Source: an uncultured Spirochaetales bacterium
GTDB taxonomy: Bacteria; Spirochaetota; Spirochaetia; CAZWAS01
Direction: 5' to 3'
NCBI GenBank assembly: GCA_964631915.1
Contig: CAZWAS010000016.1
Coordinates: forward strand, 1 to 44,111
Length of the DNA stretch: 44,111 nt
A program made the position numbers and the translations under genes. Numbering within the stretch: position 1 is the first letter of the stretch; each line of letters begins with the position of its first letter. The notes under the pieces are model-generated. The model was not told the DNA's origin. It ran no database searches and saw only the letters and a list, made by a program, of their open reading frames with translations. Positions 14,107 through 39,805 of the stretch are shown one piece after another.

Positions 14107-14108
14107 CG

Positions 14109-16487: not shown

Positions 16488-16527
16488 GGTATGCACCTGC
16501 ACTGATGGTTTGTTGTCTCAGGCACTG

Positions 16528-17657: not shown

Positions 17658-18551
17658 ATGTTGAAGGGAACCGATGTGAAAGGAGTTATTCCTGCGATAG
17701 TAACGCCTTTTACGAAGAATGATGAAGTGGATTTGAAAGGCATCGAAAAGATTACAAAATTCCTTGTTGATAACGGAGTGCATGCGCTCATGCCGGTGGG
17801 AGGTACGGGCGAATTCCCGAGTCTGCTTCGTGAAGAAAAACGGGATGTGGTGGCCGCGGTCGCGAAGATCGCGAAAGGTAAAATACCCATCATACCGGGA
17901 ACCGCTGCATGCAGCACGAGAGAAGTCATCCTGCTTTCCAATGAAGCTGCTGAAGCGGGAGCGGATGCTGTTATCGTCACTGCGCCGTACTATTTCAAGC
18001 TGCCGGACAGTTCTCTGCTGCAGCACTACAAAACGGTTGCAAAGAATATCGACTGCCCCCTCATTGTGTACAACAATCCACTGTATACGGGAAACCCCAT
18101 GAGTCCGCAGCTCATCGCAGAGCTGATGGGTGTTAAGAACATCATAGGCGTGAAGCAGAGCTGTACGGACATGGGGCAGCTCGTAGAGATGATCCGCCTT
18201 TCGCCGAAAGGCCAATCGCTGTGCACCGGCATCGACAGCCAGTTCTATCCTGCACTTTGCGTGGGAGCGGTCGGCGTATACTCTTCGGCGGCATGCGTCA
18301 TCCCCGCACAGATGGTGAAGTTATATAAACTCTTCACCGAAGGTAAGCACAAGGAAGCGCTCGAGCTCCACATGAAACTTCAGTCTCTGAACAAGTATCT
18401 CGAGTACGATCCCGGATACGTAGCGCCTGCAAAAGAGGCTCTCAACCTCATGGGGCTTCCTGGCGGATATCTCAGAGCACCTCTGCCTGAATTGACCCAG
18501 GAGGAGAAAACTGGTATCAAAGCTGCATTGAAGGAAATTAGTTCCCTCTGA
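17658..18551 (+). CDS. DapA/DHDPS-family class I aldolase/lyase (specific reaction unknown)
   Basis: GGTGEF, YNNPLYTG and the Schiff-base lysine in IIGVKQS. RBS GAAGGAGG. Confidence 0.8.
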   Translation: MLKGTDVKGVIPAIVTPFTKNDEVDLKGIEKITKFLVDNGVHALMPVGGTGEFPSLLREEKRDVVAAVAKIAKGKIPIIPGTAACSTREVILLSNEAAEAGADAVIVTAPYYFKLPDSSLLQHYKTVAKNIDCPLIVYNNPLYTGNPMSPQLIAELMGVKNIIGVKQSCTDMGQLVEMIRLSPKGQSLCTGIDSQFYPALCVGAVGVYSSAACVIPAQMVKLYKLFTEGKHKEALELHMKLQSLNKYLEYDPGYVAPAKEALNLMGLPGGYLRAPLPELTQEEKTGIKAALKEISSL

Positions 18552-18579
18552 CGAACTGGCGGATACACGGGAGGTGCGT

Positions 18580-20649
18580 ATGAAACTGCGAATGGGAGTA
18601 GATACCGGAGGAACGTTCACCGATTGTGTCGTTATAGACGAAAAGGGCACAATCCATACATTCAAAGAACTCTCGACTCCGAAAGATCCCTCCATCGGGC
18701 TTTACAATGTCATAAGGAAAGCCGCAGGGTATTTCAAAAAAGATCTGAGGAGCTTCCTGGGCGATCTAGATTTCTTCGCCCACGGTACTACCGTTGCGAC
18801 GAATACTCTTCTTACAGGAACCGGAGCCAAGACGGGATTGATCCTTACAAAGGGTTTCCGCGACACGCTTGAAATGCGGAGGGCTCATAAAGAGAACATA
18901 TGGGACCTGTATCTTCCTGTTCCTTCTCCCCTGGTTCCTCGCTATCTCAGGCTAGGAGTCACAGAGCGGATCGATTATAAAGGTGATATTATACAGCCTC
19001 TTGTAGAAGAGGATGTATACAGGATCTGCGAGTTTTTCAAAAAAGAGCAGGTGAAAGCCGTTGCAATCTGTACGCTGTTTTCCTTTCTCAACGATACGCA
19101 CGAAAAGCGGATACGGGACATCGTGGCCAAAGAAATGCCTGACGCGTTCATATCCATATCTTCCGAAGTTCTTCCACAGATACGCGAATATGAACGTATG
19201 TCGACTACCGTATCGAACGCGTATGTCGGTCCGAAACTCACCGTGTATCTTTCCACGCTCGAAAAAAAACTCAAGGATGACGGACTAAAGCGGGCATTTT
19301 ATATCACCGCTTCGAACGGCGGCGTTATGACCGCCGAAACCGCCATAAGGCACGCTTCAGCCACGCTGCTCTCTGGCCCTGCCGCCGGAGCAGTAGGAGG
19401 CATGTTCTTCGCCGACCTTCTTAAACGCGGGAATCTGATCATTATGGACATGGGCGGAACCTCTTTCGATGTCACATTAGTGAGCGGAGGCAAGGTCACC
19501 CTCAGTACAGAAGGGGAGATAGCCCGGTACAGAGTCGCGAAACCCATGATAGACATCAACACGATCGGAGCAGGCGGAGGTTCCATAGCGTGGATCGATT
19601 CAGGCGGTATGCTCAAGGTGGGACCCGCCTCTGCAGGATCGGATCCCGGGCCTGTGTGCTACGAATTGGGAGGTACGAAGCCTACGGTTACGGATTCCAA
19701 CCTCCTGCTCGGATACCTCGACAAGGATTATTTCCTCGGCGGCGAGATGAAGGTGAACGAGGAGAAGACACGAGAGGCCATGAGGCGGGAAATCGCGGAT
19801 CCGCTCGGTATTTCCGAAACGGAGGCTGCATCCGGCATTTTCAGGATCATCAATCAGAGCATGGCGGATGCGACAAAGGTCGTATCCGTACAGCGGGGGC
19901 ACGATCCGCGCGAATACGCATTGGTGAGCGCCGGAGGGGCCTGTTCCATACACGCATGCAAGATCGCCGAAGAGGTGGGATCTGAATGCGTCATAGTACC
20001 AAAGGCAGCGAGCGTGTTCTGCGCCTTGGGGATGCTCGAATCCGACATCAGGCTCGACAATGTGAAAACGTATAACGCGTTCATACCCGGAATAGATCTT
20101 GCGGATTTCAATGCGGTCATCGAAGCAGTGGAAAAGCAGGCGCTCAAGGAACTTCTGCAGGAAGGAGTCGAACGGGAACGGGCCCACCTGGTCCGGTATC
20201 TCGATATCCGCTATGTCGGACAACACCATGAGGTGACTGTCGAGATTCCTGCAGGATGCAGACTCGAGGACAAGCATCTTTCGATCATCGCCGACGCTTT
20301 CCACAAGGCGCATGAAAGGCTCTACACGTATTCTACGCCAGAGAATCCCCTCGAAGTGATGAATCTCAGGATCACTGCAGTGGGTTCTGTGGATAAGACC
20401 GGCCTCTTCGAGATTGCAGCGAGTTTGTCCGATCCTTCAGCCGCATACAAAGGAAAACGGAAGGTCTATTTCGAAGAGAAAAACGGATTCTTCGAAGTAC
20501 CCGTATACAATAGGGATCTGCTCAAGCCGGGTAATAGAATACCCGGCCCTGCGGTCATAGAAGAGCGCATCACCACCATCATCGTCCATCCGAAATGGGA
20601 TTCCTTTGTGGACAGCTATCAGAATATCATCATGGAGGTGAGGAAGTGA
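18580..20649 (+). CDS. hyuA: Hydantoinase/oxoprolinase family, A subunit (ATP-dependent)
   Basis: N-terminal GVDTGGTFTD, later DMGGTSFD. About 690 aa. Start at ATG 18580 after GGGAGG. Confidence 0.85.
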   Translation: MKLRMGVDTGGTFTDCVVIDEKGTIHTFKELSTPKDPSIGLYNVIRKAAGYFKKDLRSFLGDLDFFAHGTTVATNTLLTGTGAKTGLILTKGFRDTLEMRRAHKENIWDLYLPVPSPLVPRYLRLGVTERIDYKGDIIQPLVEEDVYRICEFFKKEQVKAVAICTLFSFLNDTHEKRIRDIVAKEMPDAFISISSEVLPQIREYERMSTTVSNAYVGPKLTVYLSTLEKKLKDDGLKRAFYITASNGGVMTAETAIRHASATLLSGPAAGAVGGMFFADLLKRGNLIIMDMGGTSFDVTLVSGGKVTLSTEGEIARYRVAKPMIDINTIGAGGGSIAWIDSGGMLKVGPASAGSDPGPVCYELGGTKPTVTDSNLLLGYLDKDYFLGGEMKVNEEKTREAMRREIADPLGISETEAASGIFRIINQSMADATKVVSVQRGHDPREYALVSAGGACSIHACKIAEEVGSECVIVPKAASVFCALGMLESDIRLDNVKTYNAFIPGIDLADFNAVIEAVEKQALKELLQEGVERERAHLVRYLDIRYVGQHHEVTVEIPAGCRLEDKHLSIIADAFHKAHERLYTYSTPENPLEVMNLRITAVGSVDKTGLFEIAASLSDPSAAYKGKRKVYFEEKNGFFEVPVYNRDLLKPGNRIPGPAVIEERITTIIVHPKWDSFVDSYQNIIMEVRK

Positions 20650-22403
20650 AATCCGAAAGAAAAAAAGAGTTTGAAGGCGCGAACGATCCCATAACCCTTT
20701 CAGTCATCTACAATCGGCTTCTCACCATCAACCAGGAAATGGGAATAACCATGATCAACACCTCCATTTCCCCCATTTTCGCGGAGGTACACGATTTTTC
20801 CTGCGCCATCTGCGATTGGGACAACAGGATAGTGGCTCAAATCGACGGCGTGCCGTCGCATACTGCTTCCGCTATGGAAGCAGTGAAGGCCATAAGCAGG
20901 GAATTCAAAGGCGACATACATCCAGGGGATGTGTTCGTGCTGAACGATCCGTATCTCGGAGGAACCCACTTGCCCGATGTCACGATCATGAAGCCGATAT
21001 TCTTTGACGGCGAACTCCAGTTCATAGCGATCAACAGAGCTCACCACGGGGATGTCGGAGGCATAGAGCCGGGCTCTTACGCGCCGAGCGCAAGGGAGCT
21101 TTTTCATGAAGGCATACGGATTCCGCCGCTCCGCATTTACAAGAATGAGAAACCCATCATGGATGTGGTAAACATGATCAGGATCAACACGCGGATGCCT
21201 GATGCATTATGGGTCGACATGAAGGCCCAAGTCGCATCGTGCAGGGTTGCGGAAAAGCGCATCATAGAGCTGATTTCCAAGTACGGCGTTGCGAAAACCC
21301 GCGCTACCGTGGAGGATATCCATCTGTATGCGGAACGCAGAATGCGCAAGGAAATCGAAAAGCTCAAAGACGGCGTATACGAAGGGGAAGTTTTCCTCGA
21401 TTCGGACGGTTTTTCCGATAATCCGATCAGGATCAAAGTCAGCATTACGGTGAAGGGCGACGAGGCGTTCGTCGATTTCTCAGGATCCGATCCTCAGGTA
21501 ACGGGCTTTGTCAATTCGCCCATGGCGAACACCGCCACCTGTGTGTACGTCGCATTCCTCACCACGGTGACGACGCCGGACATTCCGCATAACGAGGGAG
21601 TATATCGGCCAATCCATATAACGGCTCCGGAAGGTTCCGTCGTTAATCCGCGATTTCCCGCTCCCGTAGCTTCCTGTACGCTCGATACCGCATGTGCGAT
21701 TCTCGAAGCCTGTTGGATCGCATTGTCAAAGGTGCTTCCCGAACGGGTACCCGCCGGATGGAACCGATGGAACGGACCCACGATCACGGGTATAGATCCG
21801 CGGAATAACAATTTTTATGTCATGTTTGGATTCAACGGATTCGGCGGGGCCGGAGGCATGCCTGGCATGGACGGCAGGCATTATATAGGAGACGGCATAG
21901 ATTTGGGCGGCCTCATAGCGCCGAACATCGAAACGAACGAAAAGGATTATCCGCACATCACGGAGTTCAACGAGTTTACGATGGATTCCTGCGGCGCGGG
22001 AAAATTCCGAGGCGGATGCGGAGCGAAATACAGGCTGAAGGTCTACGACGAGTCTCCAACCCTTGTCATGTTCGGCGACGGGAAAAAGAATCCGCCGTAC
22101 GGGTTGTTCGGGGGACAACCGGGTTCGTGCAACAAAGCGTTTATCAACGAAGGTATGCCTTCCGAGCGGGAACTGAAAGCTAAAGAGTCGGTGGTTCTCG
22201 CAAAAGGCGATACCTATACTTCGTACCCGTCGGGCGGTGGCGGTTGGGGAAATCCGAAAGAACGCGATCCGGAGCTGGTGCGAATGGACGCCAGAAACGA
22301 AATCATTTCCCGCGAAAGCGCGGAGAAGCTCTACGGCGTCGCTCTCGAAGGCGATGATTACCGTATCAATCTGGAAAAAACTAAATTCTTGCGGAGCAAA
22401 TGA
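20646..22403 (+). CDS. hyuB: Hydantoinase/oxoprolinase family, B subunit
   Basis: The GTG start overlaps the hyuA stop (GTGA). N-terminal DPITLSVIYNRL, NDPYLGGTHLPD. Confidence 0.85.
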   Translation: MKSERKKEFEGANDPITLSVIYNRLLTINQEMGITMINTSISPIFAEVHDFSCAICDWDNRIVAQIDGVPSHTASAMEAVKAISREFKGDIHPGDVFVLNDPYLGGTHLPDVTIMKPIFFDGELQFIAINRAHHGDVGGIEPGSYAPSARELFHEGIRIPPLRIYKNEKPIMDVVNMIRINTRMPDALWVDMKAQVASCRVAEKRIIELISKYGVAKTRATVEDIHLYAERRMRKEIEKLKDGVYEGEVFLDSDGFSDNPIRIKVSITVKGDEAFVDFSGSDPQVTGFVNSPMANTATCVYVAFLTTVTTPDIPHNEGVYRPIHITAPEGSVVNPRFPAPVASCTLDTACAILEACWIALSKVLPERVPAGWNRWNGPTITGIDPRNNNFYVMFGFNGFGGAGGMPGMDGRHYIGDGIDLGGLIAPNIETNEKDYPHITEFNEFTMDSCGAGKFRGGCGAKYRLKVYDESPTLVMFGDGKKNPPYGLFGGQPGSCNKAFINEGMPSERELKAKESVVLAKGDTYTSYPSGGGGWGNPKERDPELVRMDARNEIISRESAEKLYGVALEGDDYRINLEKTKFLRSK

Positions 22404-22417
22404 TAAAGGGGGAATGT

Positions 22418-23554
22418 ATGGCTGACATAAAAAGGGTTGCTGTATTGGGAGCAGGAAGCGGGGGATTCATGTGCGCCGCGGATATGGGAAGTCTCGGCTA
22501 TGAAGTGGCCCTGTTTTCGCGCGATATGGCTAGAGTAAAGGGTGTGAAGGAAAAGGGAAGCATCGAAGTGCTCGACATAGACTCCAAGCCCACGGGAATG
22601 GCGGGGAAAATAGCCCTGGTGACCAGCGACATCAAAGAAGCTGTCAAAGGTGCTCAAGTCATCCTGAATCCGATCCCGTACTTCGCGTGTGAAGAATACG
22701 CCCGACTCGTGGCTCCCCATCTCGAAGAAGGACAGACGGTGATCTATCTCGGCAAAGGAGGAGCATGCCTCACCTGGGCAAAGGTCCTCAAAGAGCTTGG
22801 CATAAAGAAAAAGGTCTATCTCGCGGATACGAATACGCTTCCCTACGGTGCTTCCAGAAAAGGCGAATATCAGGTAAGGCTCGAAAACAGAACGCAGAAC
22901 CTGATACTCGGAACCTTCCCGGGCAAAGACGTCGACCGCGTGGCGGATACCGCATACAAGCTCTTCACTAAAGAGCACGGATACGAAATACGCAAAGGAC
23001 AGAACGCCATAGACTCGATCCTCGTGGATTACAATGCGATTACCCACACGCCGCCTATGATCTGCAATGCGGCGCGTATAGAGTCCGGCGAAAAGAATTT
23101 CTTCCTGTTCGGAAAAAAAGAAAACACTCCGGGAGTGGTTAGACTCATCGAGCGGATAGATAGGGAACGGATGGCGATCGGAAAAGCTCTCGGCATGAAA
23201 CAGTACACCCTTGAAGAAGAAATCATGATGGTGAAGTGGAATCCTCACGGCGAAACGTATGTTCTCCCACTTTACGAGGCGATCCACACCCCATTTCTCG
23301 AAGTATGCGAAGGGCCCTATACGCTGGACACTCGGCATCTGAAGGAAGACGTTCCTTACGGGCTCGTCACCTATTCCTCTCTGGGCAACATGCTTGGAGT
23401 GCCGACTCCTGTGACGGACGCCATAATAACGCTCGCTGAAGGGCTTTTAGACAGAGATTTCCGGAGCATGGGTAGAACCGTGGAAGCTATGGGCATAGAC
23501 CCGAAATGGTCGGTAGAGCAGCTCAAGAAATATCTCAAAGAAGGAGTCGTCTGA
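22418..23554 (+). CDS. NAD(P)-dependent opine (octopine/nopaline) dehydrogenase family protein
   Basis: Rossmann VAVLGAGSGG. C-terminal family pattern HTPPMICNAARIE...IDRERMAIGKALG...KEDVPYGLV...LGVPTPVTDAII. Start at ATG 22418 (AAGGGGGAA upstream). Confidence 0.7.
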   Translation: MADIKRVAVLGAGSGGFMCAADMGSLGYEVALFSRDMARVKGVKEKGSIEVLDIDSKPTGMAGKIALVTSDIKEAVKGAQVILNPIPYFACEEYARLVAPHLEEGQTVIYLGKGGACLTWAKVLKELGIKKKVYLADTNTLPYGASRKGEYQVRLENRTQNLILGTFPGKDVDRVADTAYKLFTKEHGYEIRKGQNAIDSILVDYNAITHTPPMICNAARIESGEKNFFLFGKKENTPGVVRLIERIDRERMAIGKALGMKQYTLEEEIMMVKWNPHGETYVLPLYEAIHTPFLEVCEGPYTLDTRHLKEDVPYGLVTYSSLGNMLGVPTPVTDAIITLAEGLLDRDFRSMGRTVEAMGIDPKWSVEQLKKYLKEGVV

Positions 23555-23646: not shown

Positions 23647-24648
23647 ATGAGCGATCTGAAAGGAAGAGATTTAAAAGGAATAGCCGATTTCTCGCGGGAT
23701 GAGATAGAGCTCACCCTCGAAGTGTCCAAGCTGCTGAAAATGGAACTGAAGATGGGCAAAGCCCACCGCCTCCTCGAAGGCAAGAGCCTCGCAGGCATAT
23801 TCGAGACTCCTTCTACGCGTACGAGCATTTCTTTCGAAACTGCTATGGTTCAGCTCGGCGGACATATGCACTATCTCGATCAGCACAGGCTCTGGGTCGG
23901 AGATGCCGGAGAAGAAGATTGGTACGACACGATTAAGACCATAGACCGCTATGTGGACGGAATAGCGTATAGGGCGGTTCGACGCGACCTTTTGGAACGC
24001 GCTGCTGAGCTGGCGAGCATACCGCTCATCAATGCATCCTGCCCTGTCGAGCATCCTTGTCAGGCCTTTGCCGATATCATGACCATGATCGAAAAAAAAG
24101 GTCCGGTGAGAAAATCCAAAATGGCTATGTGCTGGGGATACAGAAAAGCGAATCCTCCTGCAGGACTTACGAACTCGCTCATGTATATGGCGGGCAAACT
24201 CGGTTTCGAGTTCGTCATCGCCTGTCCCGAGGGATTCGATCCGGATATGAACATCAAAGCGGAAGCGGATAAGGAAGCGGAACTGAACGGCGGAAGCATA
24301 AAGATCGTGCGTTCCTACGAGGAAGCGGTGCGGGATGCGGACTTCATCAATGTGTACTCCTGGGTTTCTCCCGAAGTGTTCGCAAAGGGACCGGAAACGA
24401 ATTACACCGGAGGAGAGGAGTTCCAGGCGAAAAAAGCGAAACTCAAGAAAGAATGGTGCGTGACGAAGAAAATCGTGGATATGGCGAGCAAGGATTGTCA
24501 GGTTATGCACTGCATGCCCATATCAAGAAACAACGAAGTGACGGACGAAGTGCTGAACTCCGAAAAATCCATCATCTTCGATGAAGCGGAAAACAGGCTT
24601 CATACGGAAAAGGCGATCCTTGCCCTGCTCATGGGCGGATACAGATAA
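23647..24648 (+). CDS. OTC/ATC-superfamily carbamoyltransferase with non-canonical substrate motifs
   Basis: 333 aa. Has STRTS in place of STRTR, HPCQ and HCMP. The ornithine DxxxSMG loop is replaced by NVYSWVSPE. Confidence 0.8.
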   Translation: MSDLKGRDLKGIADFSRDEIELTLEVSKLLKMELKMGKAHRLLEGKSLAGIFETPSTRTSISFETAMVQLGGHMHYLDQHRLWVGDAGEEDWYDTIKTIDRYVDGIAYRAVRRDLLERAAELASIPLINASCPVEHPCQAFADIMTMIEKKGPVRKSKMAMCWGYRKANPPAGLTNSLMYMAGKLGFEFVIACPEGFDPDMNIKAEADKEAELNGGSIKIVRSYEEAVRDADFINVYSWVSPEVFAKGPETNYTGGEEFQAKKAKLKKEWCVTKKIVDMASKDCQVMHCMPISRNNEVTDEVLNSEKSIIFDEAENRLHTEKAILALLMGGYR

Positions 24649-24660: not shown

Positions 24661-26685
24661 ATGGGGCTCGTGAACCTTGAAACAGGAGAAGAACAGCACT
24701 ACTCACTTCGGGAACTCGAAGAGTTCGCGAAAAGGATGCGGGCCCTCGATCTTGTGAGTATCCACGCTGCCGGTTCGGGACATCCGGGCGGGACTCTTTC
24801 TGTCATGGATATCGCCGCTGTCCTGTATCTCGACGAAGTGCGGTACAACCCACAGAATCCGAAATGGGACGGCAGGGATAGAGTATTCTTTTCCGCAGGG
24901 CACAAGGCTCCTGCTATGTACGCAGCGTTGGTGGAAGCAGGGTATTTCAGCGCGGAAGAAGTTGTGACGCTTAGAAAGATTGGAAGTCCCTTCCAAGGAC
25001 ATCCTCATGCTCCGGCTTTGCGGGGTATCGAAGTCTCGAGCGGATCCCTCGGTCAGGGTCTGGGTATCGCGGTCGGCTGCGCTCTTTCCGCGAAGATGAG
25101 CGGAAAAAGTTTCAGGGTGTACTGCGTTATGGGGGACGGCGAGCAGCAGGAAGGAAGCATCTGGGAGGCTGTCATGGCTGCGGCCCATTACGGGCTCGGC
25201 AATCTTTGCGCCATCATAGATAAGAATAAGCTCCAAATCGACGGATCGGTCAAGGATGTGATGAACCTCGACCCCATTGCCGAAAAGTATAGGGCATTCG
25301 GCTGGAATGTGGTGGAGACGGACGGTCACAGCATAGCCGCGATCAAGGAAGCTTTCGCCGAAGCGCGAAAGGCTGTAGGAAAACCGACCGTGATAATCGC
25401 CGAGACCATAAAAGGGAAGGGTGTATCCTTCATGGAGAACCAAGCGGGGTGGCACGGTGTCGCAACCAATTCGAGAGAACAGCTCGCTTCAGCGTTGAAG
25501 GATGTCGGATGCGCCGACTTTTCCCCTGAACGTGTCGACTATCTACTCGCCAAGGCCGCGGTGCATCAGAAACAGCAAGAAGAAAGCCTGAAGAAGGCGC
25601 TTCCTGTATTTTCGAAGGATTATTGGTGGAACGCCGGCCAGGATATGAAAGTGGATATGGTGCCGAATAGATTCGGATTCGGTGCCTGCCTTGCAAAGAT
25701 AGGCGACGATCCGAGGATCGTGACTATCCATGCCGATATCTCTCAGTCCATCAAGATTTCGGATTTTGAAAAGGATCATCCGGAACGAAAGACACGGGTG
25801 GTCAGTGTGGGTATAGCGGAACAGAACATGATGAGCGTCGCCGCCGGTCTTGCGCTCGAAGGGAAAATTCCGATAACAGGGACATACGGCGTATTCGCTG
25901 CAGGGAGACCCTGGGATCAGATTCGCACGACGATTTGCTACGACAAGCTGAACGTAAAAATCGCGGGAGCTCACGGAGGCATATCGGTAGGACCTGACGG
26001 AGCCACGCATCAGGCTCTTGAAGAACTAAACCTCATGACCGTGCTTCCCAATATGACATTCGTAGCCCCTTGCGATTCGCTGGAGGCGGAGCGACTTACC
26101 CGCATTTCGATTCTGGAAAAGGAAGGCCCTGTGTACATCAGGCTCGCCCGCGAGGCGACCCCTGTGGTTACGGACGAAAAAACCCCTCTCGTTCTGGGCA
26201 AAGCCAATATTGTACGCTACCGGCGTCGTTCCAACAGGTTCAAAGATGCGTTCGATGTTCTGCTCGCTTCCGATTACCGCAACGAACACGAAGATATAAC
26301 GATCATTTCCTGCGGCCCTCTGCTTTGCGAAGCAATGCGGGCCGCGTACATACTATCGGATGAGTTTGGCATAGAGGCGCGGGTGATCAACATGCATACG
26401 ATTAAACCGCTCGACGAAGAGGCGGTGGTGCGCGCATGTTCCGAAACTCGGGCGATACTCACCTGTGAGGAACATCAGAAAGGGGGGCTCGGCAATTTGG
26501 TGGCGGGAGTCGTGTGCAGAAACAAGGCGATCGATGCGCCGTTTGTTCTGGACATGATAGGCATCGAAGACAGGTTTGGAGAATCCGGAGGTCCCTGGGA
26601 GCTGATGATTAAGTTCGGTCTTACGGCCGAACATATTGTTGTAAAGGCCAAGGAATTGGTACAAAGGAAGAATGGGAGGCATTGA
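24661..26685 (+). CDS. Transketolase-family ThDP enzyme, single-chain fusion of the split N- and C-terminal type
   Basis: GSGHPGG and GDGEQQEG...IDKN (ThDP motif). A linker of about 60 aa joins these to the Pyr/C-terminal half (GIAEQNM, GPDGATHQ). Confidence 0.8.
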   Translation: MGLVNLETGEEQHYSLRELEEFAKRMRALDLVSIHAAGSGHPGGTLSVMDIAAVLYLDEVRYNPQNPKWDGRDRVFFSAGHKAPAMYAALVEAGYFSAEEVVTLRKIGSPFQGHPHAPALRGIEVSSGSLGQGLGIAVGCALSAKMSGKSFRVYCVMGDGEQQEGSIWEAVMAAAHYGLGNLCAIIDKNKLQIDGSVKDVMNLDPIAEKYRAFGWNVVETDGHSIAAIKEAFAEARKAVGKPTVIIAETIKGKGVSFMENQAGWHGVATNSREQLASALKDVGCADFSPERVDYLLAKAAVHQKQQEESLKKALPVFSKDYWWNAGQDMKVDMVPNRFGFGACLAKIGDDPRIVTIHADISQSIKISDFEKDHPERKTRVVSVGIAEQNMMSVAAGLALEGKIPITGTYGVFAAGRPWDQIRTTICYDKLNVKIAGAHGGISVGPDGATHQALEELNLMTVLPNMTFVAPCDSLEAERLTRISILEKEGPVYIRLAREATPVVTDEKTPLVLGKANIVRYRRRSNRFKDAFDVLLASDYRNEHEDITIISCGPLLCEAMRAAYILSDEFGIEARVINMHTIKPLDEEAVVRACSETRAILTCEEHQKGGLGNLVAGVVCRNKAIDAPFVLDMIGIEDRFGESGGPWELMIKFGLTAEHIVVKAKELVQRKNGRH

Positions 26686-28004
26686 TGGGAAAAGTAAGAA
26701 TTGTCCATTACATAAACCAGTTCTTCGCAGGTATCGGAGGAGAAGAGAAAGGCGGCTCTCCTTTGGAATTCTGCGAAGGGCCGAAAGGTCCCGGCATCGG
26801 ACTTACCCAGCTCATGGGTGCTGATGCCGAGATCGTACGTACGATCTGGTGCGGGGACAACCTCATAAATCAGGAACAGGAAAGAATCCTCAAAGACATC
26901 GAGAAACTTATCTTAGAAGCAAAACCCGATGTCGTGGTAGCTGGTCCCGCCTTCAACGCGGGTCGATACGGGCTTGCGTGCGGCATGGTGAGCAAATTGT
27001 GCACCGAAACGCTCAAAATACCCGCATTGACGGGGCTTTACCCTGAAAATCCTGCTGTGGAAATATACCGAAAGGATGCGTATATCTATCCCTGTTCAGA
27101 GACCGCCGCAGGCATGAGAAAGGATCTTCCCGGTCTCGCTAAGCTCGCAGTGAAGCTCGGCAAAGAGGGGAAGCTTGGACCTGCGAACATCGACGGATAC
27201 ATACCGCGCGGATACAGGTACAACGAATTCCTGGAAAAAAGCGCAGCGGAACGCTCGATCGCCATGCTCATGTCGAGGCTTCAGAACGGAAATCCGATAA
27301 CCGAAATACCGCTTCGGGGTTTCGAGCAGGTTTCTCCTGCTCCTCCGCTGAGGAATTTGAAGGAAGCGACTATTGCCATCGTCACCGGCGGAGGCATGGT
27401 TCCGAAGGGAAATCCGGATAAACTGAAACAGGCGTTTGCCGATTCCTTCGGTATCTACTCGATAGAGGGAATGACAGAGCTTCCCTCTGGCGATTTCAAA
27501 GGAATCCACGGCGGGTTCGATTCCACGTGGGTCGATCAGGATCCCGATCGGGTGGTGCCTGTGGATGTTCTCAGGGCAATGGAGAAGGAAGGCAAGTTCA
27601 AAAAACTGTTGAACGAATACTTCGCGTTGTGCGGCATCGGAACGAATGTTGCGATGAGCAAGAAGCTTGGTGCCGAGATAGCGGAGGAGCTTAAAAGAAG
27701 GGAGGTTTCAGCAGCTATTTATACCTCCACCTGAGGAACCTGTACTCGTTGCGTGTCAACGATGCAGAAAGAAGCCGAAAGAGTCGGCATCCCTTCGGCC
27801 CTTATAACGGCAATCCCTTCGGTCGCGAAATCTGTAGGAGTGAGCAGAATAATCACGGGCGGAGGAATTCCCTATCCGGTCGGAAACCCTTCCATGCCGC
27901 CCGACCGCGAACTGGAGTTCAGAAGACGTCTTGTAGAAAAAGCGTTGGAAGCGATTTCTTCGGAAATCAAGGAACCTACCGTTTTCAACGTGACCGTAGC
28001 CTGA
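26685..28004 (+). CDS. GrdB/GrdF/GrdH-family selenoprotein B (substrate-specific reductase subunit), with Sec encoded by in-frame UGA 27732-27734
   Basis: Track ORFs 26682..27734 and 27753..28004 are in one frame. The join reads IYTST-U-GTCTRCVSTMQKE, the family's U-x2-C-x2-C motif. N-terminus KVRIVHYINQFFAGIGGEEK. The start overlaps the transketolase stop (TGATG). Confidence 0.85.
27732..27734 (+). other. In-frame UGA selenocysteine codon (GrdB-like)
   Basis: Its position corresponds to the conserved Sec of selenoprotein B. The reading frame continues for 90 more codons of conserved sequence. Confidence 0.8.
27746..27762 (+). promoter_or_regulatory. Candidate bacterial SECIS hairpin
   Basis: UCGUUG-cgugu-CAACGA (6-bp stem) begins 12 nt after the UGA. 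The apical loop contains G and U, and the loop starts about 20 nt from the UGA. Confidence 0.45.
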
Positions 28005-28022
28005 GGATAAGAGGGGAATGCA

Positions 28023-29333
28023 ATGAAACTGGAACGCGGATATTTTACCATAAAGGACCTCCGTTTCGGGAATGGAACACATCTCGAAAACGGAATTCTT
28101 ACAATTAACAAAACGGAATTGAAAAACCATCTTCTGAAGGAAGATGTGAACAAAAACATACGGTCTCTCGAACTGGAAATCGTGAAACCGGGCGAAGACG
28201 CGAGAATCGTGCATGTGCTCGACACAGTGCAGGTCGGCGTGAAAGTGGAAGGCGAAGGAGAGTTCATGCCCGGCCACCTCTGCGATCCGACCATAGTAGG
28301 CAGCGGCAAGACGCATCTCATCACCAACCTTGCGGTCATGGAATGCGCGGAGCTTCCATGGGCCGGCAAATCGAGTCTCCTCTACGCAAGAGACGCCATA
28401 GTAGATATGGTCGGCCCTGCAGCCGGTTACTCTCCTTTTTCGCAGACGTTCAATCTCGTTCTGAGAATGGAGATGAAGGATGGCGCGAGCGATGTGGAAT
28501 ACGATGAGTCCGTCCGACAAGCTGGAATACAATGTTCCCGCTTTCTCGCGGAATTGATAAAGAATAAGACGCCGGATACATCGGAACTATTCGACTTTTC
28601 CCAAGAAGTCGATCCGTCATTGCCGAAAATCGCATATGTAACCCAGTGCCAGAACCAAGGAACCTATTCCAATACGTTCTTGTACGGAAAGGAAGTGAGC
28701 AACATTGTTCCTTACAACCTCAGTCCTACCGAAGTGATGGACGGCTGCATCGTGAGCGGCAATTATGTGTGGCCTTGTTTCAAAATTCCTTCCTTCATTC
28801 AGGCCAATCTGCCTGTGGTTATGGAACTTTCAAGGCAGCACGGCAAAACCGTCAATTTCGTGGGCGTCATCTTCGACCGAGGACATAACCACTCCCATTT
28901 CGAAAAGATGCGGGTTGCGAACATGGCGGCTGCTCAGGCGAGGAGGTTAGGGGCTCAGGGGGTGGTAATCTCGTGGGAAGGCGGCGGGAACGCCGCTACG
29001 GATGCCATGCTTACTATCCAAAGGTGCGAACGATGGGGTATAAAGGCAGTAGCATTCACCTTCGAGTTCGGCGGACCGGACGGTACGGAAGGGGTGCTTC
29101 TCGTGGATGATGTCCCTGAAGCGAAGTATCTCGTTTCTTCGGGATCTATTGAAAAACCTACCACGATCCCGAAAGTGAAACGGGTGGCAGGCGGAGACGT
29201 GCTTAGACTGCGCAAAGAGACAGGCGGTGCTCCGGAACCTGCAGATGTGGAACGCACGCTCGATAACATAACGCCGTTTTACTGTGGCGCAAACCAGAGC
29301 GGAATAGGAAGACTTGCGGGAGTGGGATACTAG
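28023..29333 (+). CDS. GrdE/GrdG/GrdI-family reductase subunit (proprotein-type partner of selenoprotein B)
   Basis: 436 aa. N-terminal pattern FTIKDLRFGNGTHLENGILTINK, mid-protein PTEVMDGCIVSGNY, C-terminal ...GVGY. RBS AGAGGGG. Confidence 0.75.
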   Translation: MKLERGYFTIKDLRFGNGTHLENGILTINKTELKNHLLKEDVNKNIRSLELEIVKPGEDARIVHVLDTVQVGVKVEGEGEFMPGHLCDPTIVGSGKTHLITNLAVMECAELPWAGKSSLLYARDAIVDMVGPAAGYSPFSQTFNLVLRMEMKDGASDVEYDESVRQAGIQCSRFLAELIKNKTPDTSELFDFSQEVDPSLPKIAYVTQCQNQGTYSNTFLYGKEVSNIVPYNLSPTEVMDGCIVSGNYVWPCFKIPSFIQANLPVVMELSRQHGKTVNFVGVIFDRGHNHSHFEKMRVANMAAAQARRLGAQGVVISWEGGGNAATDAMLTIQRCERWGIKAVAFTFEFGGPDGTEGVLLVDDVPEAKYLVSSGSIEKPTTIPKVKRVAGGDVLRLRKETGGAPEPADVERTLDNITPFYCGANQSGIGRLAGVGY

Positions 29334-29338: not shown

Positions 29339-30520
29339 ATGCTCATGGAAGGAAAAGTCTTCGATATTATCATTGTTGGTGCGGGAACAGCGGGGTTTTC
29401 CGCAGGCATATACGGCGCCAGGGCCAAGCGGTCCACGCTCATACTCGACAAAAAGCGGCCGGGAGGCCAGGCTTCCACCACCGAAGTCATGGAGAATTAT
29501 CCTGGCTTCCCCGGCAGCATAGGCGGCAGGGAGCTCATGGATCGCTTCAGAGAACATGCGACGGAAATGGGCGCGGGCATCGAAAAGGCCGAAGTCACGG
29601 GATTTTCCGAAGAAAATGGCGTATACCTCGTGCACACAAAAGAGACGACGGTATACAGAGCCAAAAGTCTCATACTCGCCCCCGGCTGCGAACCGCGCAG
29701 GCTTGGTATTCCGGGGGAAAAGGAATTCTCCGGAAGTGGGGTGTCCTATTGTGCGACCTGCGATGCAGAGCTCTATGAAGGAGCGAAGGTTGTGGTCGTA
29801 GGAAGCGGAGACACCGCTGTGGAGGAGGCAAATTTCATAAGCAGGTTCGCCGAAGAAGTGATCATGATCGTGGTCCACGACGAGGGCGTGCTCGACTGCA
29901 ACAAGACCATGGCGGAAACCGCTTTGTCGAATCCGAAGCTCACATGGAAATGGAACAGGTCCATACTCTCTATCGAGGGAAAGGACGCCGTGGAAGGAGT
30001 GAAACTTAAGAACCTGAGGACAGGAACCGAAGAACAGGTCAGCTGTGACGGAGTGTTCATCTTCGTGGGTACCATCCCGCAGACCGGATTCATTGGCGAT
30101 TTTGTGGCCATGAGGAACGGTTTCATCGTTACGGACGACAAAATGGAAACCAACCGGCCCCTCGTCTATGCAGCCGGGGATGCGAGAGTGAAGGCGCTGC
30201 GTCAGGTGGTGACCGCCGCATCCGACGGAGCCATAGCCGCTTTTTTCGCGGACAAATCTTTAACCGAAATGGAAGAATTCGCGAAATCGGTCAAGAGGGC
30301 AGGGAAAGAATATCTACTATATTTTTATTCCCCGCCGGTGCAGATAAGCCTGGAGCTTTTCCCGGATGTCGAACGGAAAGCGGAAAAACTTGGTATTTCG
30401 CTTATAAAGTTGGATACGTTCAGATACAGAACCATAGCCGATAAATACGGTGTCAGTTCGGTTCCGCACCTCGTGCGTATAGAGGACGGTATCCTGAAAG
30501 AAGTTATACAGATAAACTAA
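29339..30520 (+). CDS. Thioredoxin-reductase-like flavoprotein with a C-terminal redox-dead thioredoxin-fold domain
   Basis: [17 protein letters not shown] redox pair, [22 protein letters not shown] replaces HRRxxFRAxK. The C-terminal ~85 aa are Trx-like ([10 protein letters not shown] where CxxC is expected; SSVPHLV cis-Pro loop). Alternative start ATG 29345. Confidence 0.8.
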
Positions 30521-30539
30521 GACAGAGGAGGTGATGCGA

Positions 30540-31001
30540 ATGCTCGAAGGCAAGAAGATAATCATCCTGGGCGACCGAGACGGTATACCCGGCGGTGCGA
30601 TCGAAGCGTGCCTCGCGGGAAAGAATGTCGAAATTGTGTTTTCCGCGACCGAGTGCTTTGTCTGAACGTCGGCCGGAGCAATGGACCTGGAAAACCAAAA
30701 GCGGGTGAAAGCCCTTGCAGAGCAGCACGGAAAGGAAAACATCGTAGTTCTCCTAGGCGGTGCCGATGCGGAGGCGAGCGGACTGATTGCGGAAACCGTG
30801 ATCGCAGGCGACCCGGCTTATGCAGGTACATTGACAGGGGTCCAGTTGGGACTCCCCACATTTCACATGCTCGAACCGGAAATAAAACAGGAAATAGACT
30901 CAGGCGTATATGAGGCCAACATCGGAATGATGGAGATGGTGCTCAACGTCGATGAAATCGTGAAGGAAGTGTCTTCCATCAGGAAAAAATTTCTTTCATG
31001 A
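30540..31001 (+). CDS. grdA: Glycine/sarcosine/betaine reductase complex selenoprotein A, with Sec encoded by in-frame UGA 30663-30665
   Basis: [18 protein letters not shown]...[23 protein letters not shown]. This is the GrdA CxxU motif. Track ORF 30681..31001 is the same frame downstream of the UGA. RBS GAGGAGG. Alternative start 30534. Confidence 0.9.
30663..30665 (+). other. In-frame UGA selenocysteine codon (GrdA)
   Basis: [17 protein letters not shown]. Conserved sequence runs on both sides in one frame. Confidence 0.85.
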
Positions 31002-31017: not shown

Positions 31018-31338
31018 ATGATAGAACTCGATAAGGATAATTTTGATCAGAAAGTGCTCGCTCATGCGGGCATTTTCTTGGTCGATTTCTGGAGCGATTC
31101 CTGCGAAACCTGCCTTGAAATGATGCCACAGATCGAGAAGCTCGAAAAGGATTTGGCCGGCAAGGTCGAATTCGGGAAAGTAAACATCCAGGGCAACAGG
31201 CGGCTTGCAATACGGGAAAAGGTGCTTGGTCTTCCTACAGTAGCCATCTATTCGAATGGTCAGAAGATTGCATCCTTTTCCAAGGAATTCACGGCGGAAG
31301 AAGTCAAAACAAAAGTCGAGGAGCTGATTCGTGGTTGA
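31018..31338 (+). CDS. trxA: Thioredoxin with a CETC active site
   Basis: 106 aa. FLVDFWSDSCETCLEMMP, cis-Pro loop GLPTVAIY. Confidence 0.8.
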   Translation: MIELDKDNFDQKVLAHAGIFLVDFWSDSCETCLEMMPQIEKLEKDLAGKVEFGKVNIQGNRRLAIREKVLGLPTVAIYSNGQKIASFSKEFTAEEVKTKVEELIRG

Positions 31339-33925: not shown

Positions 33926-34327
33926 ATGGGTACCGGTTTTACCTTCGATTACGAAAAATGTACCGAATGTGAACGATGCATGGCAACGTGTTCGATAGTC
34001 AAGAAGGGATTCGTCCAGCTTCAGCAGTCGATGATCGTCATCGGCAAGAACTGGCCCGAACTCCCGGAAATCCGCGTGTGCAGATTCGACGACTGCAAAG
34101 GGCATCCCTGCATAGCATCATGTCCGGTGGAAGCCATATCTGATAAGGACGGCATAATACTCATAGATGAAAATACCTGTACCGGTTGTGGGGCATGCGT
34201 AGAAGAGTGCCCGTACCGGGCCATATATATGATCGACGGTATTGCGAGAAAATGCGACTTCTGCGGTGGCGATCCCGAATGCGTCAAAGCGTGCGTGACC
34301 GTGGCCATCGCGAAGAAAGGAGGATGA
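33926..34327 (+). CDS. Poly-[4Fe-4S] ferredoxin-domain protein
   Basis: CTECERCMATC, CIASCP, CTGCGACVEECP and CDFCGGDPECVKAC cluster motifs. Confidence 0.85.
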   Translation: MGTGFTFDYEKCTECERCMATCSIVKKGFVQLQQSMIVIGKNWPELPEIRVCRFDDCKGHPCIASCPVEAISDKDGIILIDENTCTGCGACVEECPYRAIYMIDGIARKCDFCGGDPECVKACVTVAIAKKGG

Positions 34328-34329
34328 GT

Positions 34330-36159
34330 ATGGCGAGCAGCATGTACGATACCCTGCTCCGCATCGATTGTGGAAAAAAAAGTTCAGTACCGGTGCAGGT
34401 CGGAGGAGAGCTGAAGTCATACATCGGAGGCATGGGATATGGGACAAAGATCCTCATCGATGAAGTCGATCCGAAAGCCGATCCTCTGTCCGCTCAGAAC
34501 AAGATCGTGTTGACAGTAGGACCACTCACCGGCACTACGGCACCGATGTTTCCGCAGGCTTGTATAGTCACCAAGTCGCCACTCACAAAAAGCATTTTGA
34601 ACTGCTATGCAGGTGGTTTTCTCGGTGCCGAAGTGAAATTCTGTGGACTCGACGGAATAATCCTCGAGGGGAAAGCCGACCAGTGGAGCCTCATACTCGT
34701 GGAGGACCGCAAGGTGAGTTTCCACGATGCTGGGCCGGTCATGGGCAAGAGCACGCACGAAACCGAAGCGTACATGAAGAAGAAATTCGGAAGCGATGTG
34801 AAGACCCTTTCCATAGGCGTGGCTGGAGAGAAGGTGGTTGCCATGTCCTCGATCTTCTCCGAAACGAGGACCTTCGGCAGAGGCGGCGCCGGAGCAATCC
34901 TCGGCTCGAAGCGCATAAAAGGCATGGCGTTCCGGGGTACGCGGGGAGTCGATGTGTTCGATCGAAAGCGGTTCGCGGAACTTGTGAACGAAAACGTCGA
35001 AGGTATAAAGGCCGCATGCAAAGAAGAGCATAACCTCGTGGGCATGTTCTCCCGCGTCGGTACCGGTGCAGGAATGGGGCTCATAAACCGCAAAGGAGCT
35101 CTCGCTACGAAAAATCATCAGTATGGAAGTTTTCCCGAAGGTTCAGCGATAGACGGATACGCGTATGCGAAAAATTTCTACACGCGCGCCATTTCCTGCT
35201 ATGGATGCCCTGTGCACTGCGGCATGCTGCATAAATACCGGAGACCGGACAATTCGGATGCGTGGCTACGCGGACCTGAATACGAAACCATGTTTTCCCT
35301 CGGATCCGACCTTCTGAATGACGATCCTGTAACGCTTGCCGACGCAAACCAGCTCTGCGAGGATTACGGTATGGATACGCTCACCGTAGGAGTCACCATA
35401 GCGTGGGCGTTCGAAATGGCAGAGAAGGTGATCCTCAAAGATCCTGATCTGCCGCTCAAGTTTGGAGACAGGCCTTCTATTCTAGGACTCATTCGGAAAA
35501 TAGGAGAGCGCGAGGGAATCGGCAACCTGCTGGCGGAAGGTCCTAAGATAGCTGCAGAGAAAACGGGGAAAGAAACCGTAGGGGCTGCCATGCAGATCAA
35601 GAATTCCGGATTTGCTGCATGGATGCCGCGGCGCATGAAGGGAGTCGCTCTCTCGTTTGCGACTTCCAACCGCGGAGCTTGCCATAAGCGGGCGCCTATC
35701 GGCGCCGAAATAATGGGTGCCATAGACATGGATTCGTATGACGGAAAAGCTCAAATAGTGAAAGATATTCAGGATACGGTGAATGCCGTTTTCACGTTGG
35801 TGGCATGCAGATTCCACGAATTCATAAGCCCGAAGGAATTATATCCGCAGTTGGTGGAGGCTGCGACAGGCGTTCATATGAGCCTTGACGAATTCATAAA
35901 AGTGGGGGAGCGCATCTGGAACTTAGAACGGATTTTTAATATCGGCGCCGGATTCACGAGAAACGACGACAATCTTCCGGAACGCTGTTTCGAACCTATA
36001 AAAGGCGAAGCTTCCCAGGGAGCTGTATTGGATAAAAAGAAATTCGCGGCCATGCTGGACGAATACTATACGTTGCGCGGATGGGATCTCGAAGGCAAGC
36101 CAACTCCTGCAACGCTTAAGCGACTAGGAATCGAGGAATACGCGAGGTTTATAACATGA
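34330..36159 (+). CDS. Aldehyde:ferredoxin oxidoreductase family (tungsten/molybdopterin AOR)
   Basis: About 609 aa. AOR N-terminal domain pattern (LLRIDCG...GGMGYGTKIL). [4Fe-4S] ligands CYGCPVHC. The track start 34186 overlaps the ferredoxin gene, so ATG 34330 was chosen. Confidence 0.8.
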   Translation: MASSMYDTLLRIDCGKKSSVPVQVGGELKSYIGGMGYGTKILIDEVDPKADPLSAQNKIVLTVGPLTGTTAPMFPQACIVTKSPLTKSILNCYAGGFLGAEVKFCGLDGIILEGKADQWSLILVEDRKVSFHDAGPVMGKSTHETEAYMKKKFGSDVKTLSIGVAGEKVVAMSSIFSETRTFGRGGAGAILGSKRIKGMAFRGTRGVDVFDRKRFAELVNENVEGIKAACKEEHNLVGMFSRVGTGAGMGLINRKGALATKNHQYGSFPEGSAIDGYAYAKNFYTRAISCYGCPVHCGMLHKYRRPDNSDAWLRGPEYETMFSLGSDLLNDDPVTLADANQLCEDYGMDTLTVGVTIAWAFEMAEKVILKDPDLPLKFGDRPSILGLIRKIGEREGIGNLLAEGPKIAAEKTGKETVGAAMQIKNSGFAAWMPRRMKGVALSFATSNRGACHKRAPIGAEIMGAIDMDSYDGKAQIVKDIQDTVNAVFTLVACRFHEFISPKELYPQLVEAATGVHMSLDEFIKVGERIWNLERIFNIGAGFTRNDDNLPERCFEPIKGEASQGAVLDKKKFAAMLDEYYTLRGWDLEGKPTPATLKRLGIEEYARFIT

Positions 36160-37001: not shown

Positions 37002-37004
37002 GGT

Positions 37005-37484
37005 ATGCAGATCACGTTCATATGCAACGGCGAACAGGTGAGTGTCGAAGCAGCTCCGGACATGAGGGCGCTCGACCTCCTCCGCGATACACTCGGACTC
37101 ACCGGTACCAAGGAAGGTTGCGGACGCGGGGAATGCGGCGCCTGTACGATTCTGCTCGACGGTGCTCCTGTGAATGCATGCCTAGTGTATGCCGCGAAAC
37201 TCAATGGAAGAACAGTTGAGACCATCGAAGGCCTATCCTCTAACGATGGAAAACTTCATCCGATACAGGAGGCCTTTCTCGATGAAGGGGCTGTGCAATG
37301 CGGTTACTGCACTCCTGGCATGGTGATGAGCACAAAGGCGCTTCTCGACAAAAATCCGAAACCCACTGTTGCGGACATCGAAGAGGCGTTGAGCGGAAAT
37401 TTCTGCCGCTGTACAGGATACGCGAAGATCGTGAAAGCCGTGCAGAAGGCTGCAGGTACGAAGACCGGAGGTGCACATGAATAA
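37005..37484 (+). CDS. Molybdenum hydroxylase [2Fe-2S] subunit
   Basis: GCGRGECGACTILLDG, CGYCTPGM, CRCTGY. Confidence 0.9.
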   Translation: MQITFICNGEQVSVEAAPDMRALDLLRDTLGLTGTKEGCGRGECGACTILLDGAPVNACLVYAAKLNGRTVETIEGLSSNDGKLHPIQEAFLDEGAVQCGYCTPGMVMSTKALLDKNPKPTVADIEEALSGNFCRCTGYAKIVKAVQKAAGTKTGGAHE

Positions 37485-39762: not shown

Positions 39763-39805
39763 AACGCTTGTCCGGATCGACACGCGGATTGAAGGGGAGG
39801 TAGGT

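Follow-up and report, generated by a model that had tools for sequence, protein, structure and literature searches.

A divergent GrdB/GrdE-type pair in a putative N-heterocycle operon of an uncultured Spirochaetales bacterium

Introduction

Glycine reductase and its relatives use a substrate-specific "protein B", made up of a GrdB-type selenoprotein and a GrdE-type partner. To our knowledge, the only substrates assigned to this selenoenzyme family are glycine, sarcosine, betaine, D-proline and, recently, fluoroacetate. The fluoroacetate reductase FarB/FarE of Cloacibacillus is a divergent GrdB/GrdE-type pair that feeds a new X-CH2-COO- substrate into GrdA/GrdCD (PMC10838667). A second described system that is relevant here is the reductive uric acid (2,8-dioxopurine) cluster of E. 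coli and C. difficile (10.1101/2025.05.19.654654; 10.1101/2025.04.24.650524). Grd genes are mentioned in neither of these two reports, and in the literature we found no account of Grd modules within gene clusters for the breakdown of urate or creatinine. Here we analyse a GrdB/GrdE-type pair at positions 26685-29333 of a 44,111-nucleotide stretch of an uncultured Spirochaetales bacterium (contig CAZWAS010000016.1, assembly GCA_964631915.1), the whole of which is referred to below as the window.

Judged by its sequence, the pair is non-canonical and belongs to a separate, uncharacterised clade of Spirochaetota and some Bacillota, of which we found no description in the literature. Our preferred reading, to which we give a probability of about 0.4, is that it is the substrate-specific protein B of a complete glycine-reductase-type system, that it works without a pyruvoyl group, and that it acts on an N-alkylglycine within an operon for N-heterocycle degradation.

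Results

The GrdB/GrdE-type pair and its selenocysteine codon

Both proteins belong to the Grd families. The whole of the B subunit is covered by PF07355 (Pfam GRDB; 441 bits against a cut-off of 22), and it passes the family-level model TIGR01918 (485 bits, cut-off 65); the E subunit scores 399 bits on PF09338 (Pfam Gly_reductase, the GrdE/GrdG/GrdI family). The selenocysteine (Sec) codon of the GrdB-like gene is the in-frame TGA at 27732-27734, giving TST-U-GT-C-TR-C, which is an intact U-x2-C-x2-C motif. The signals for Sec recoding are also present: the hairpin that follows this codon matches the Rfam family SECIS_4 with 33.2 bits and an E-value of 8.6e-5, just under the gathering score of 38, and its predicted fold is more stable than those of shuffled controls (z-score -2.7).

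A sequence-only reading of the window had claimed that the GrdB-family selenoprotein starts on the stop codon of a transketolase gene and precedes the GrdE-family gene, and both claims are borne out. The TGA at 26683-26685 ends the transketolase open reading frame (ORF), and its A is common with the ATG of the GrdB-like gene at 26685-26687 (TGATG), an overlap of one base. The GrdE-family gene starts 17 nt past the GrdB-like gene.

Relation to the characterised Grd families

The pair falls below the cut-off of every curated subfamily model. The specific NCBIfam model that scores best with the B subunit is the GrdF model NF040794, at 481 bits against a cut-off of 800, followed by the GrdB equivalog TIGR01917 (452.8 against 602.2) and the GrdH model NF040795 (422 against 775). 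For comparison, TIGR01917 gives 726-781 bits with control GrdB proteins encoded in canonical operons. The E subunit reaches 279.6 bits on the GrdG model NF040793 (cut-off 780) and 150.5 bits on the FarE model NF053623 (cut-off 675), and the D-proline reductase models PrdA and PrdB (TIGR04480 and TIGR04483) give 48.8 and 96.3 bits against cut-offs of 700 and 300. Searches of the PDB with the sequences of both the B and the E protein found no solved relatives.

Glycine references were taken from a scan of species-representative genomes, which gave 80 loci with the canonical orders trxB-trx-grdE-grdA-grdB-grdCD or grdE-grdB-trxB-trx-grdA-grdCD. The sarcosine reference is the grdX-grdG-grdF locus on the megaplasmid of Peptoclostridium acidaminophilum. 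The betaine reference comes from a megaplasmid of Enterococcus gilvus, which carries trxB-trx-grdA-grdC-grdD, an unnamed GrdE-family gene, grdH and a BCCT transporter; the GrdI reference is thus the unnamed partner of a PGAP-named GrdH and not a characterised GrdI. Identity to the glycine and sarcosine references is 34-38% for the E subunit and 42-45% for the B subunit, and identity to the E. gilvus pair is 29% and 40% respectively.

A neighbour-joining tree was calculated from 138 near-full-length representatives and matches together with 7 references. The window falls in a clade with a bootstrap value of 99, in neither of the reference clades, which have values of 94 (GrdE/GrdG) and 100 (GrdI). 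The placement against reference sets that the sequence-only reading had called for therefore supports its view that this is not an ordinary glycine-specific pair. Metagenome-assembled genomes of Spirochaetota supply about 70 proteins at 73-83% identity, and the next relatives, at 51-57%, are from Bacillota.

The order of the two genes separates the same clade. In every readable context of the extended clade, namely eight from Spirochaetota (the window included) and four from Bacillota, the B gene precedes the E gene, whereas among 82 canonical GrdE genes the order is E-B in 76, E-A-B in 5 and B-E in none. The order is grdG-grdF in P. acidaminophilum, and the grdI-like gene followed by grdH in E. 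gilvus. The reversed order had already been picked out as unusual. Because it is found in all readable contexts of the clade and in none of the canonical loci, it is a character of the clade and not a rearrangement specific to the window.

The processing cysteine of the E subunit

In the partners of the validated GrdB proteins, which are 426-428 aa long, Cys242 lies in the sequence SGN-C-VSAC. Bednarski et al. (2001) are reported to have identified this Cys as the residue that is turned into the pyruvoyl group. The E subunit of the window does have Cys residues at 242 (MDG-C-IVSGNY) and 252 (VWP-C-F), as had been read from the translation, and an alignment was proposed as the way to find out whether the canonical processing site is conserved. 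The alignment shows that neither Cys lies at that site. The same column holds SGN-C in P. acidaminophilum GrdG, SGS-F in the E. gilvus GrdI-like protein and SGN-Y in the window, where the residue is Tyr248. Cys242 of the window shares its number with the canonical site by coincidence: it aligns with Ala236 of GrdE, in a column that is Ala in 121 of the 138 representatives. Cys252 aligns with the non-processing Cys246 of GrdE, which varies even within the canonical clade.

By alignment, then, the canonical processing Cys is absent from the E subunit of the window, and its replacement is invariant, with Tyr248 found in all of the 120 closest relatives. Cys242 is kept in 116 of these and Cys252 in 52. 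Four members of the clade have Ala at position 242, including P0066, which has an identical operon and occurs on at least 14 contigs; and P0073 has neither Cys, yet lies in a full grd operon. Because the processing Cys is replaced by an invariant Tyr, much as it is by Phe in the GrdI-like protein, the E subunit is probably not self-cleaved and probably has no pyruvoyl group, resembling GrdI in this respect.

Across the 138 representatives of the PF09338 family, the processing column is Cys in 6, Tyr in 69 and Phe in 16; on these sequences the characterised pyruvoyl type is a minority within the GrdE-type family. The family (representatives P0121-P0270) is also much more diverse than its characterised members: it comprises at least 955 clusters at 50% identity (E<=1e-3), and grouping its near-full-length top matches at roughly 40% identity gives about 52 groups.

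Exchange of the Grd module between related operons

Carbamoyltransferase homologues that are 66-85% identical to that of the window were used to compare versions of the operon, and a metagenome scan with the carbamoyltransferase gave six loci, from which the third of the following variants comes. In variant (a) the Grd module lies between the carbamoyltransferase and xanthine dehydrogenase (XDH)-like genes (the window, loci L001-6, L098 and L105-6, and two JGI contexts). In variant (b) its place is taken by a corrinoid protein, MtmB-like and MttB-like methyltransferases and an SbnB/OCD-family dehydrogenase (L096 11063-15950, L097 11033-15533 and L099 941-2961). In variant (c), found in L100-L103 (for example L101 4118-20794), no module is inserted, and ferredoxin and aldehyde:ferredoxin oxidoreductase (AOR) are likewise missing; L101 then has an ADP-forming acyl-CoA synthetase and an IorA-like 2-oxoacid:ferredoxin oxidoreductase, and upstream it carries YqeC and MocA-like genes. 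Insertion of the Grd module is thus optional, and the same site may instead hold a methyltransferase module or nothing. Because the same cassette and downstream genes occur with an alternative module or with none, the module would act on a product of the conserved core pathway.

The MtmB-like and MttB-like genes of variant (b) are uninterrupted, and so apparently do not use pyrrolysine; the MttB-superfamily member scores 445 bits on the trimethylamine methyltransferase model. The presence of two homologues of N-methyl-amine methyltransferases at the site points to an N-methylated intermediate or product. One of the variant (b) loci is in a Bipolaricaulota genome and has a cassette 73-77% identical to that of the spirochaete, which suggests lateral transfer.

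The context of HyuAB, opine dehydrogenase and carbamoyltransferase genes is kept in eight contexts of the Grd type. Members of the clade from Bacillota (L007 5295-11323, L009 7511-15502, L091 3089-11296) adjoin other genes, these being aldehyde dehydrogenases resembling betaine aldehyde dehydrogenase (BADH; 476-500 bits, cut-off 669), iron-containing alcohol dehydrogenase (Fe-ADH), AOR, an APC-family permease or PTS-Man/SIS/aldolase genes. Within 10 kb of the pair, L007 and L009 have no grdA or grdCD. The BADH-like aldehyde dehydrogenases, Fe-ADH or AOR fit substrates that arise by oxidation of compounds of the aminoacetaldehyde type, and support the class of N-substituted glycines in general.

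The downstream Grd machinery

The window encodes the complete reductase set along with protein B: a Sec-containing GrdA, GrdC and GrdD, thioredoxin (Trx) and thioredoxin reductase (TrxR, TrxB). The coordinates of these genes and of the rest of the operon are listed in Table 1. GrdA is 60-67% identical to GrdA from canonical loci, and the GrdC-GrdD fusion (cf. FS41, PMC4417704) passes both of its models, with 657 bits against 450 on NF040746 and 408 against 350 on NF040747. The TrxR has 393 aa and lies just under the cut-off of TIGR01292 (326.5 against 343 bits); its C-terminal extension gives 21.6 bits on PF00085 over residues 310-385. The sequence-only reading had argued from the presence of GrdA and GrdCD that the substrate should deliver a carboxymethyl group, and with both proteins canonical and co-encoded this is a reasonable expectation. 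The GrdC-GrdD fusion is also found in all of the spirochaete relatives and in L092. The ferredoxin and AOR genes occur in variants (a) and (b), with the exception of L001 and L105.

Table 1. Genes and elements of the window around the GrdB/GrdE-type pair
Feature	Position	Strand	Evidence or remark
Carbamate kinase	14109..15062	-	TIGR00746 397 bits, cut-off 358; 45% identity to E. coli YqeA
Class-III aminotransferase	15159..16502	-	NF004426 559 bits, cut-off 552
GntR/FCD regulator, head of operon	16840..17556	+	Position kept in relatives
Dihydrodipicolinate synthase (DHDPS)-family aldolase, accessory	17658..18551	+	PF00701 244 bits
HyuA/HyuB ATP-dependent hydantoinase/lactamase pair	18574..22403	+	Pfam and PDB matches
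Opine dehydrogenase homologue	22400..23554	+	PF02317 115 bits
Ornithine carbamoyltransferase (OTC)-like carbamoyltransferase	23647..24648	+	TIGR00658 270.9 bits, below cut-off 280.85
Transketolase, fused, 674 aa, accessory	24661..26685	+	NF004559 626 bits, cut-off 488
GrdB-family selenoprotein, 439 aa	26685..28005	+	Translation, PF07355, TIGR01918
SECIS-like hairpin	27735..27772	+	Directly 3' of the UGA; Rfam SECIS_4
GrdE-family subunit, 436 aa, Tyr248 at pro-pyruvoyl Cys column	28023..29333	+	PF09338, alignment
Thioredoxin reductase, weak C-terminal Trx-like extension	29339..30520	+	Pyr_redox_2 158 bits
GrdA selenoprotein A, CFV-U, TGA 30663-30665	30534..31001	+	PF04723 155 bits, translation
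Thioredoxin	31018..31338	+	PF00085 72.5 bits
Fused GrdC-GrdD (protein C, acetyl-phosphate-forming), 860 aa	31331..33913	+	NF040746, NF040747
4Fe-4S ferredoxin (33926-34327) and AOR	33926..36159	+	Travel with the inserted module
XDH-like FAD, 2Fe-2S and Mo subunits; SsnA/Atz-type amidohydrolase; PreA/UacX-like flavoprotein	36156..42394	+	Kept in all three variants

The surrounding operon

The transketolase is coupled to the pair by its overlap in one sub-lineage only. Besides the window, only the two relatives nearest to it (L001-3, L105-6) have the gene, with the same one-base overlap and always with the DHDPS-family aldolase; the gene is absent from L004-6, L098 and the two JGI contexts. The aldolase, which co-varies with the transketolase, occurs only in the window, L001, L104 and L105. 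Both genes are missing from four other contexts of the clade, where the carbamoyltransferase comes directly before grdB. The proposed coupling to the transketolase is thus real as an overlap and does not extend to the clade, and the transketolase is ruled out as an integral part of the reductase. The ferredoxin-AOR genes and the transketolase/aldolase genes partly interchange: L001 and L105 have transketolase and aldolase without AOR, L004, L098 and others have AOR only, and in the window all of these genes occur together. Such a pattern hints that an aldehyde intermediate is shared.

Of the solved structures, HyuA and HyuB are nearest to 6yra (deposited as a 5-oxoprolinase/hydantoinase; 549 and 339 bits), with the N-methylhydantoinase 7hk5 at 450 and 239 bits. 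The opine dehydrogenase homologue matches the N-(1-D-carboxyethyl)-L-norvaline dehydrogenase (CENDH) of Arthrobacter (1bg6) over its full length, with an E-value of 1.4e-40. The carbamoyltransferase has STRTS for STRTR, HCMP for HCLP, and NVYSWVS where OTC has its ornithine-binding DxxxSMG loop, so that on its motifs the second substrate is probably not ornithine. These features rule out an ordinary catabolic OTC, and a YgeW orthologue is also ruled out (85-88 bits against cut-offs of 453-500, 25% identity). Among the flanking genes to which the sequence-only reading had drawn attention, the opine dehydrogenase and a carbamoyltransferase are therefore present, the latter without the ornithine-binding motif; no Ldh_2-family gene, which it had also named, was found among the window ORFs scanned.

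Downstream, the genes at 36156-42394 would form the core catabolic part for an N-heterocycle. The PreA/UacX-like protein is a DHODH-family flavoprotein with two 4Fe-4S clusters. An assignment of the Mo subunit as an XdhD orthologue is not supported, with 32% identity to XdhA against 29% to XdhD. A MocA-like molybdenum cofactor cytidylyltransferase (36% identity to E. coli MocA) and the carbamate kinase lie upstream of the operon, at 13471-15062, a placement that mirrors the E. coli ygeW-ssnA-xdhD locus. The carbamate kinase and the class-III aminotransferase, both divergently oriented, belong to the conserved neighbourhood, and the aminotransferase adjoins the operon in several relatives.

Further upstream, the window has a 2-oxoacid dehydrogenase complex at 26-4556 (E1 alpha, which the start of the window truncates, together with E1 beta, lipoyl E2 and E3). 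At 6422-9018 there is a radical SAM protein (438 aa) followed by a Trx-thioredoxin reductase fusion (427 aa), the two ORFs overlapping. A radical SAM maturase has been proposed for the far operon; the radical SAM gene of the window is 18 kb from the grd genes.

Discussion

A proposed pyruvoyl-free protein B for an N-alkylglycine

What the pair acts on, that its E subunit goes unprocessed and what the adjoining genes do are inferred, in a model that covers most of the genes. The substrate is probably an N-substituted glycine rather than glycine, with sarcosine or a close N-alkylglycine as the simplest candidate. The sequence-only reading had considered an N-substituted glycine worth pursuing, and the operon context favours it as the best guess. 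Sec350 of the B subunit would attack the alpha-carbon of R-NH-CH2-COO-, the amine would leave, and the carboxymethyl group would be handed to GrdA. GrdCD would then free the carboxymethyl-derived group as acetyl phosphate, a potential source of ATP, and the electrons would come from Trx and TrxR. The N-alkyl amino acid itself would come from an N-substituted ring of the hydantoin type, by ATP-dependent ring opening by HyuAB and the action of the atypical carbamoyltransferase, and carbamate kinase would recover ATP.

The opine dehydrogenase would provide an oxidative branch, in which the N-alkyl amino acid gives an amine and a 2-oxoacid (glyoxylate, if it is an N-alkylglycine). This 2-oxoacid may be handled by ferredoxin and AOR, by the transketolase with an enzyme of the DHDPS/hydroxyoxoglutarate (HOG) aldolase type, or, in variant (c), by the 2-oxoacid oxidoreductase. 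The Grd module would supply a reductive branch that yields ATP, converting the same N-alkylglycine to acetyl phosphate and balancing redox, while the methyltransferase module of variant (b) would use the N-methyl group instead. In its most extended form the proposal is that of a new pyruvoyl-independent class of Grd protein B. An N-alkylglycine set free from an N-substituted hydantoin would undergo a Stickland-like dismutation, with this protein B as the reductive half and the opine dehydrogenase as the oxidative half. The two would constitute an undescribed anaerobic route in Spirochaetota for compounds of the creatinine, N-methylhydantoin or methylated purine type, for which relatives swap in the corrinoid methyltransferase module. 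We hold this fuller scheme to be less likely than not.

Several observations weigh against the N-alkylglycine reading. The sarcosine reductase subunit GrdG of P. acidaminophilum keeps the processing Cys, so that a secondary amine of the sarcosine type would be expected to need a carbonyl cofactor that is seemingly absent here. The XDH-like, PreA-like and amidohydrolase genes are a constant part of the operon, and a simple creatinine or N-methylhydantoin route has no role for them. This set of genes resembles instead the upper part of the reductive uric acid pathway, which yields 2,3-diaminopropionate and not an N-alkylglycine (10.1101/2025.05.19.654654). The operon contains no transporter that points to a substrate. 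Finally, the clade-specific Cys242, six residues upstream of the canonical site, could be an alternative processing site.

Alternative explanations

If Cys242 were such a site, cleavage between Gly241 and Cys242 would create a pyruvoyl group, and the pair would carry out the canonical Schiff-base chemistry on glycine or sarcosine. A conserved Cys that replaces a family-wide Ala so close to the usual position fits this, as does the fact that other pyruvoyl enzymes use junctions of the Gly-Ser or Gly-Cys type. However, the clade members with Ala at this position, P0066 with its identical operon among them, and the member with neither Cys in a full operon (P0073), make a shifted site very unlikely. 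Glycine might also be reduced in the ordinary way by this divergent pair, if the adjacent genes degrade purines to glycine, either by way of N-carbamoylglycine or through 2,3-diaminopropionate, aminoacetaldehyde and AOR. Classical purine fermenters do feed glycine to glycine reductase, and the class-III aminotransferase together with AOR could offer a way from diaminopropionate to glycine. The XDH-, SsnA- and PreA/UacX-like genes, together with MocA, carbamate kinase, carbamoyltransferase and hydantoinase, parallel the uricolytic cluster of E. coli and C. difficile (10.1101/2025.05.19.654654). We nevertheless hold glycine to be quite an unlikely substrate, given that the Cys needed for pyruvoyl Schiff-base chemistry is Tyr throughout the closest relatives, that the B subunit remains under the TIGR01917 cut-off (453 against 602 bits), and that the exchange for methylamine-type methyltransferases in sister operons would be left unexplained.

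The lack of a processing-site Cys, shared with the GrdI-like partner of E. gilvus GrdH, could instead indicate a betaine-type reductase for an ammonium acetate whose nitrogen is quaternary or tertiary, such as glycine betaine, dimethylglycine or an analogue, serving as an electron sink for heterocycle fermentation and not fed by HyuAB and the carbamoyltransferase. Glycine betaine has two known anaerobic fates, in which either GrdHI reduces it or an MttB-family enzyme demethylates it, and the alternative module at the same locus has an MttB-superfamily methyltransferase and a corrinoid protein; moreover, the BADH-like aldehyde dehydrogenases and Fe-ADH next to the Bacillota relatives would be in keeping with such a substrate. 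This explanation is unlikely in view of the low score on the GrdH model (422 against 775 bits), the distance from the betaine pair (40% identity for B, 29% for E) and the lack in the operon of a BCCT/OpuD transporter, unlike E. gilvus, and it leaves the tight linkage to HyuAB, opine dehydrogenase and carbamoyltransferase unexplained. A further alternative is some other ring-derived substrate, which would fit the carbamoyltransferase being the gene directly upstream in most relatives. Candidates are N-carbamoyl or guanidino glycines (hydantoate, N-carbamoylsarcosine, guanidinoacetate, creatine or the carboxymethyl-arginine type) and, from the reductive urate pathway, the C3 amino acids 2,3-diaminopropionate and albizziin; with the C3 compounds, GrdA/GrdCD would have to handle an acyl group other than acetyl. 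The missing pyruvoyl site would fit a substrate with a nitrogen that is unable to form a Schiff base, and variant (b) includes an SbnB-family dehydrogenase, a family related to diaminopropionate. But ureido is a poor leaving group, canonical GrdA and GrdCD are known only with carboxymethyl and acetyl groups, and the reaction would be without precedent; such a substrate is on the whole improbable, though to be kept in mind.

Significance

The clade offers a tractable example of the unexplored majority of the GrdE-type family, with a complete apparatus for electron transfer and phosphorylation and a conserved catabolic context, and the natural exchange of modules narrows the range of substrates. 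Knowing its substrate would test whether Tyr can replace the pyruvoyl cofactor in the reduction of a C-N bond. An identified substrate would add an energy-conserving reductive branch to anaerobic N-heterocycle degradation, which is of relevance to compounds derived from urine and manure and to purine turnover.

Comparison with known systems

Glycine reductase (GrdB and GrdE) shares with the window the PF07355/PF09338 pair, Sec in U-x2-C-x2-C, and GrdA, GrdC/D and Trx/TrxR in the same operon. The window pair differs in its identity (36-38% for E, 42-45% for B), its failure on TIGR01917, its Tyr in place of Cys242, its order of B-E against E-(A)-B, and its setting in a heterocycle-catabolic operon. 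Betaine reductase (GrdH and GrdI) is alike in having an E-type subunit without the pro-pyruvoyl Cys (Phe in E. gilvus, Tyr in the window), and the alignment makes a pyruvoyl-independent mechanism likely in both. It differs in sequence (40% for B, 29% for E), falls in a separate clade, has the grdI-like gene before grdH in E. gilvus, and is accompanied there by a BCCT transporter that the window lacks. For sarcosine reductase (GrdF and GrdG of P. acidaminophilum), GrdF is the best specific model, and the context of the window, with HyuAB of the N-methylhydantoinase family, carbamoyl removal and the methyltransferases of sister operons, would fit sarcosine; the scores are, however, far below the cut-offs (481 against 800 and 280 against 780 bits), GrdG keeps Cys242, and the order is grdX-grdG-grdF. 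FarB/FarE differs from the window pair in the score on the FarE model (150 against 675 bits), in its order farE-farB, and in its phylum and context.

The operon as a whole parallels the reductive uric acid cluster, with which it has in common a Mo hydroxylase and FAD subunit, an SsnA-type amidohydrolase, a UacX-type flavoprotein, hydantoin ring opening, a carbamoyltransferase, carbamate kinase and MocA, as well as YqeC in a relative. Identities are 26-46%, and the hydroxylase is closer to XdhABC than to XdhD; an ATP-dependent HyuAB stands in place of HyuA, and an OTC-like enzyme in place of YgeW. Finally, the window operon lacks YgeX and YgeY, and has instead an opine dehydrogenase and the Grd module, the latter replaced in relatives by the methyltransferase module.

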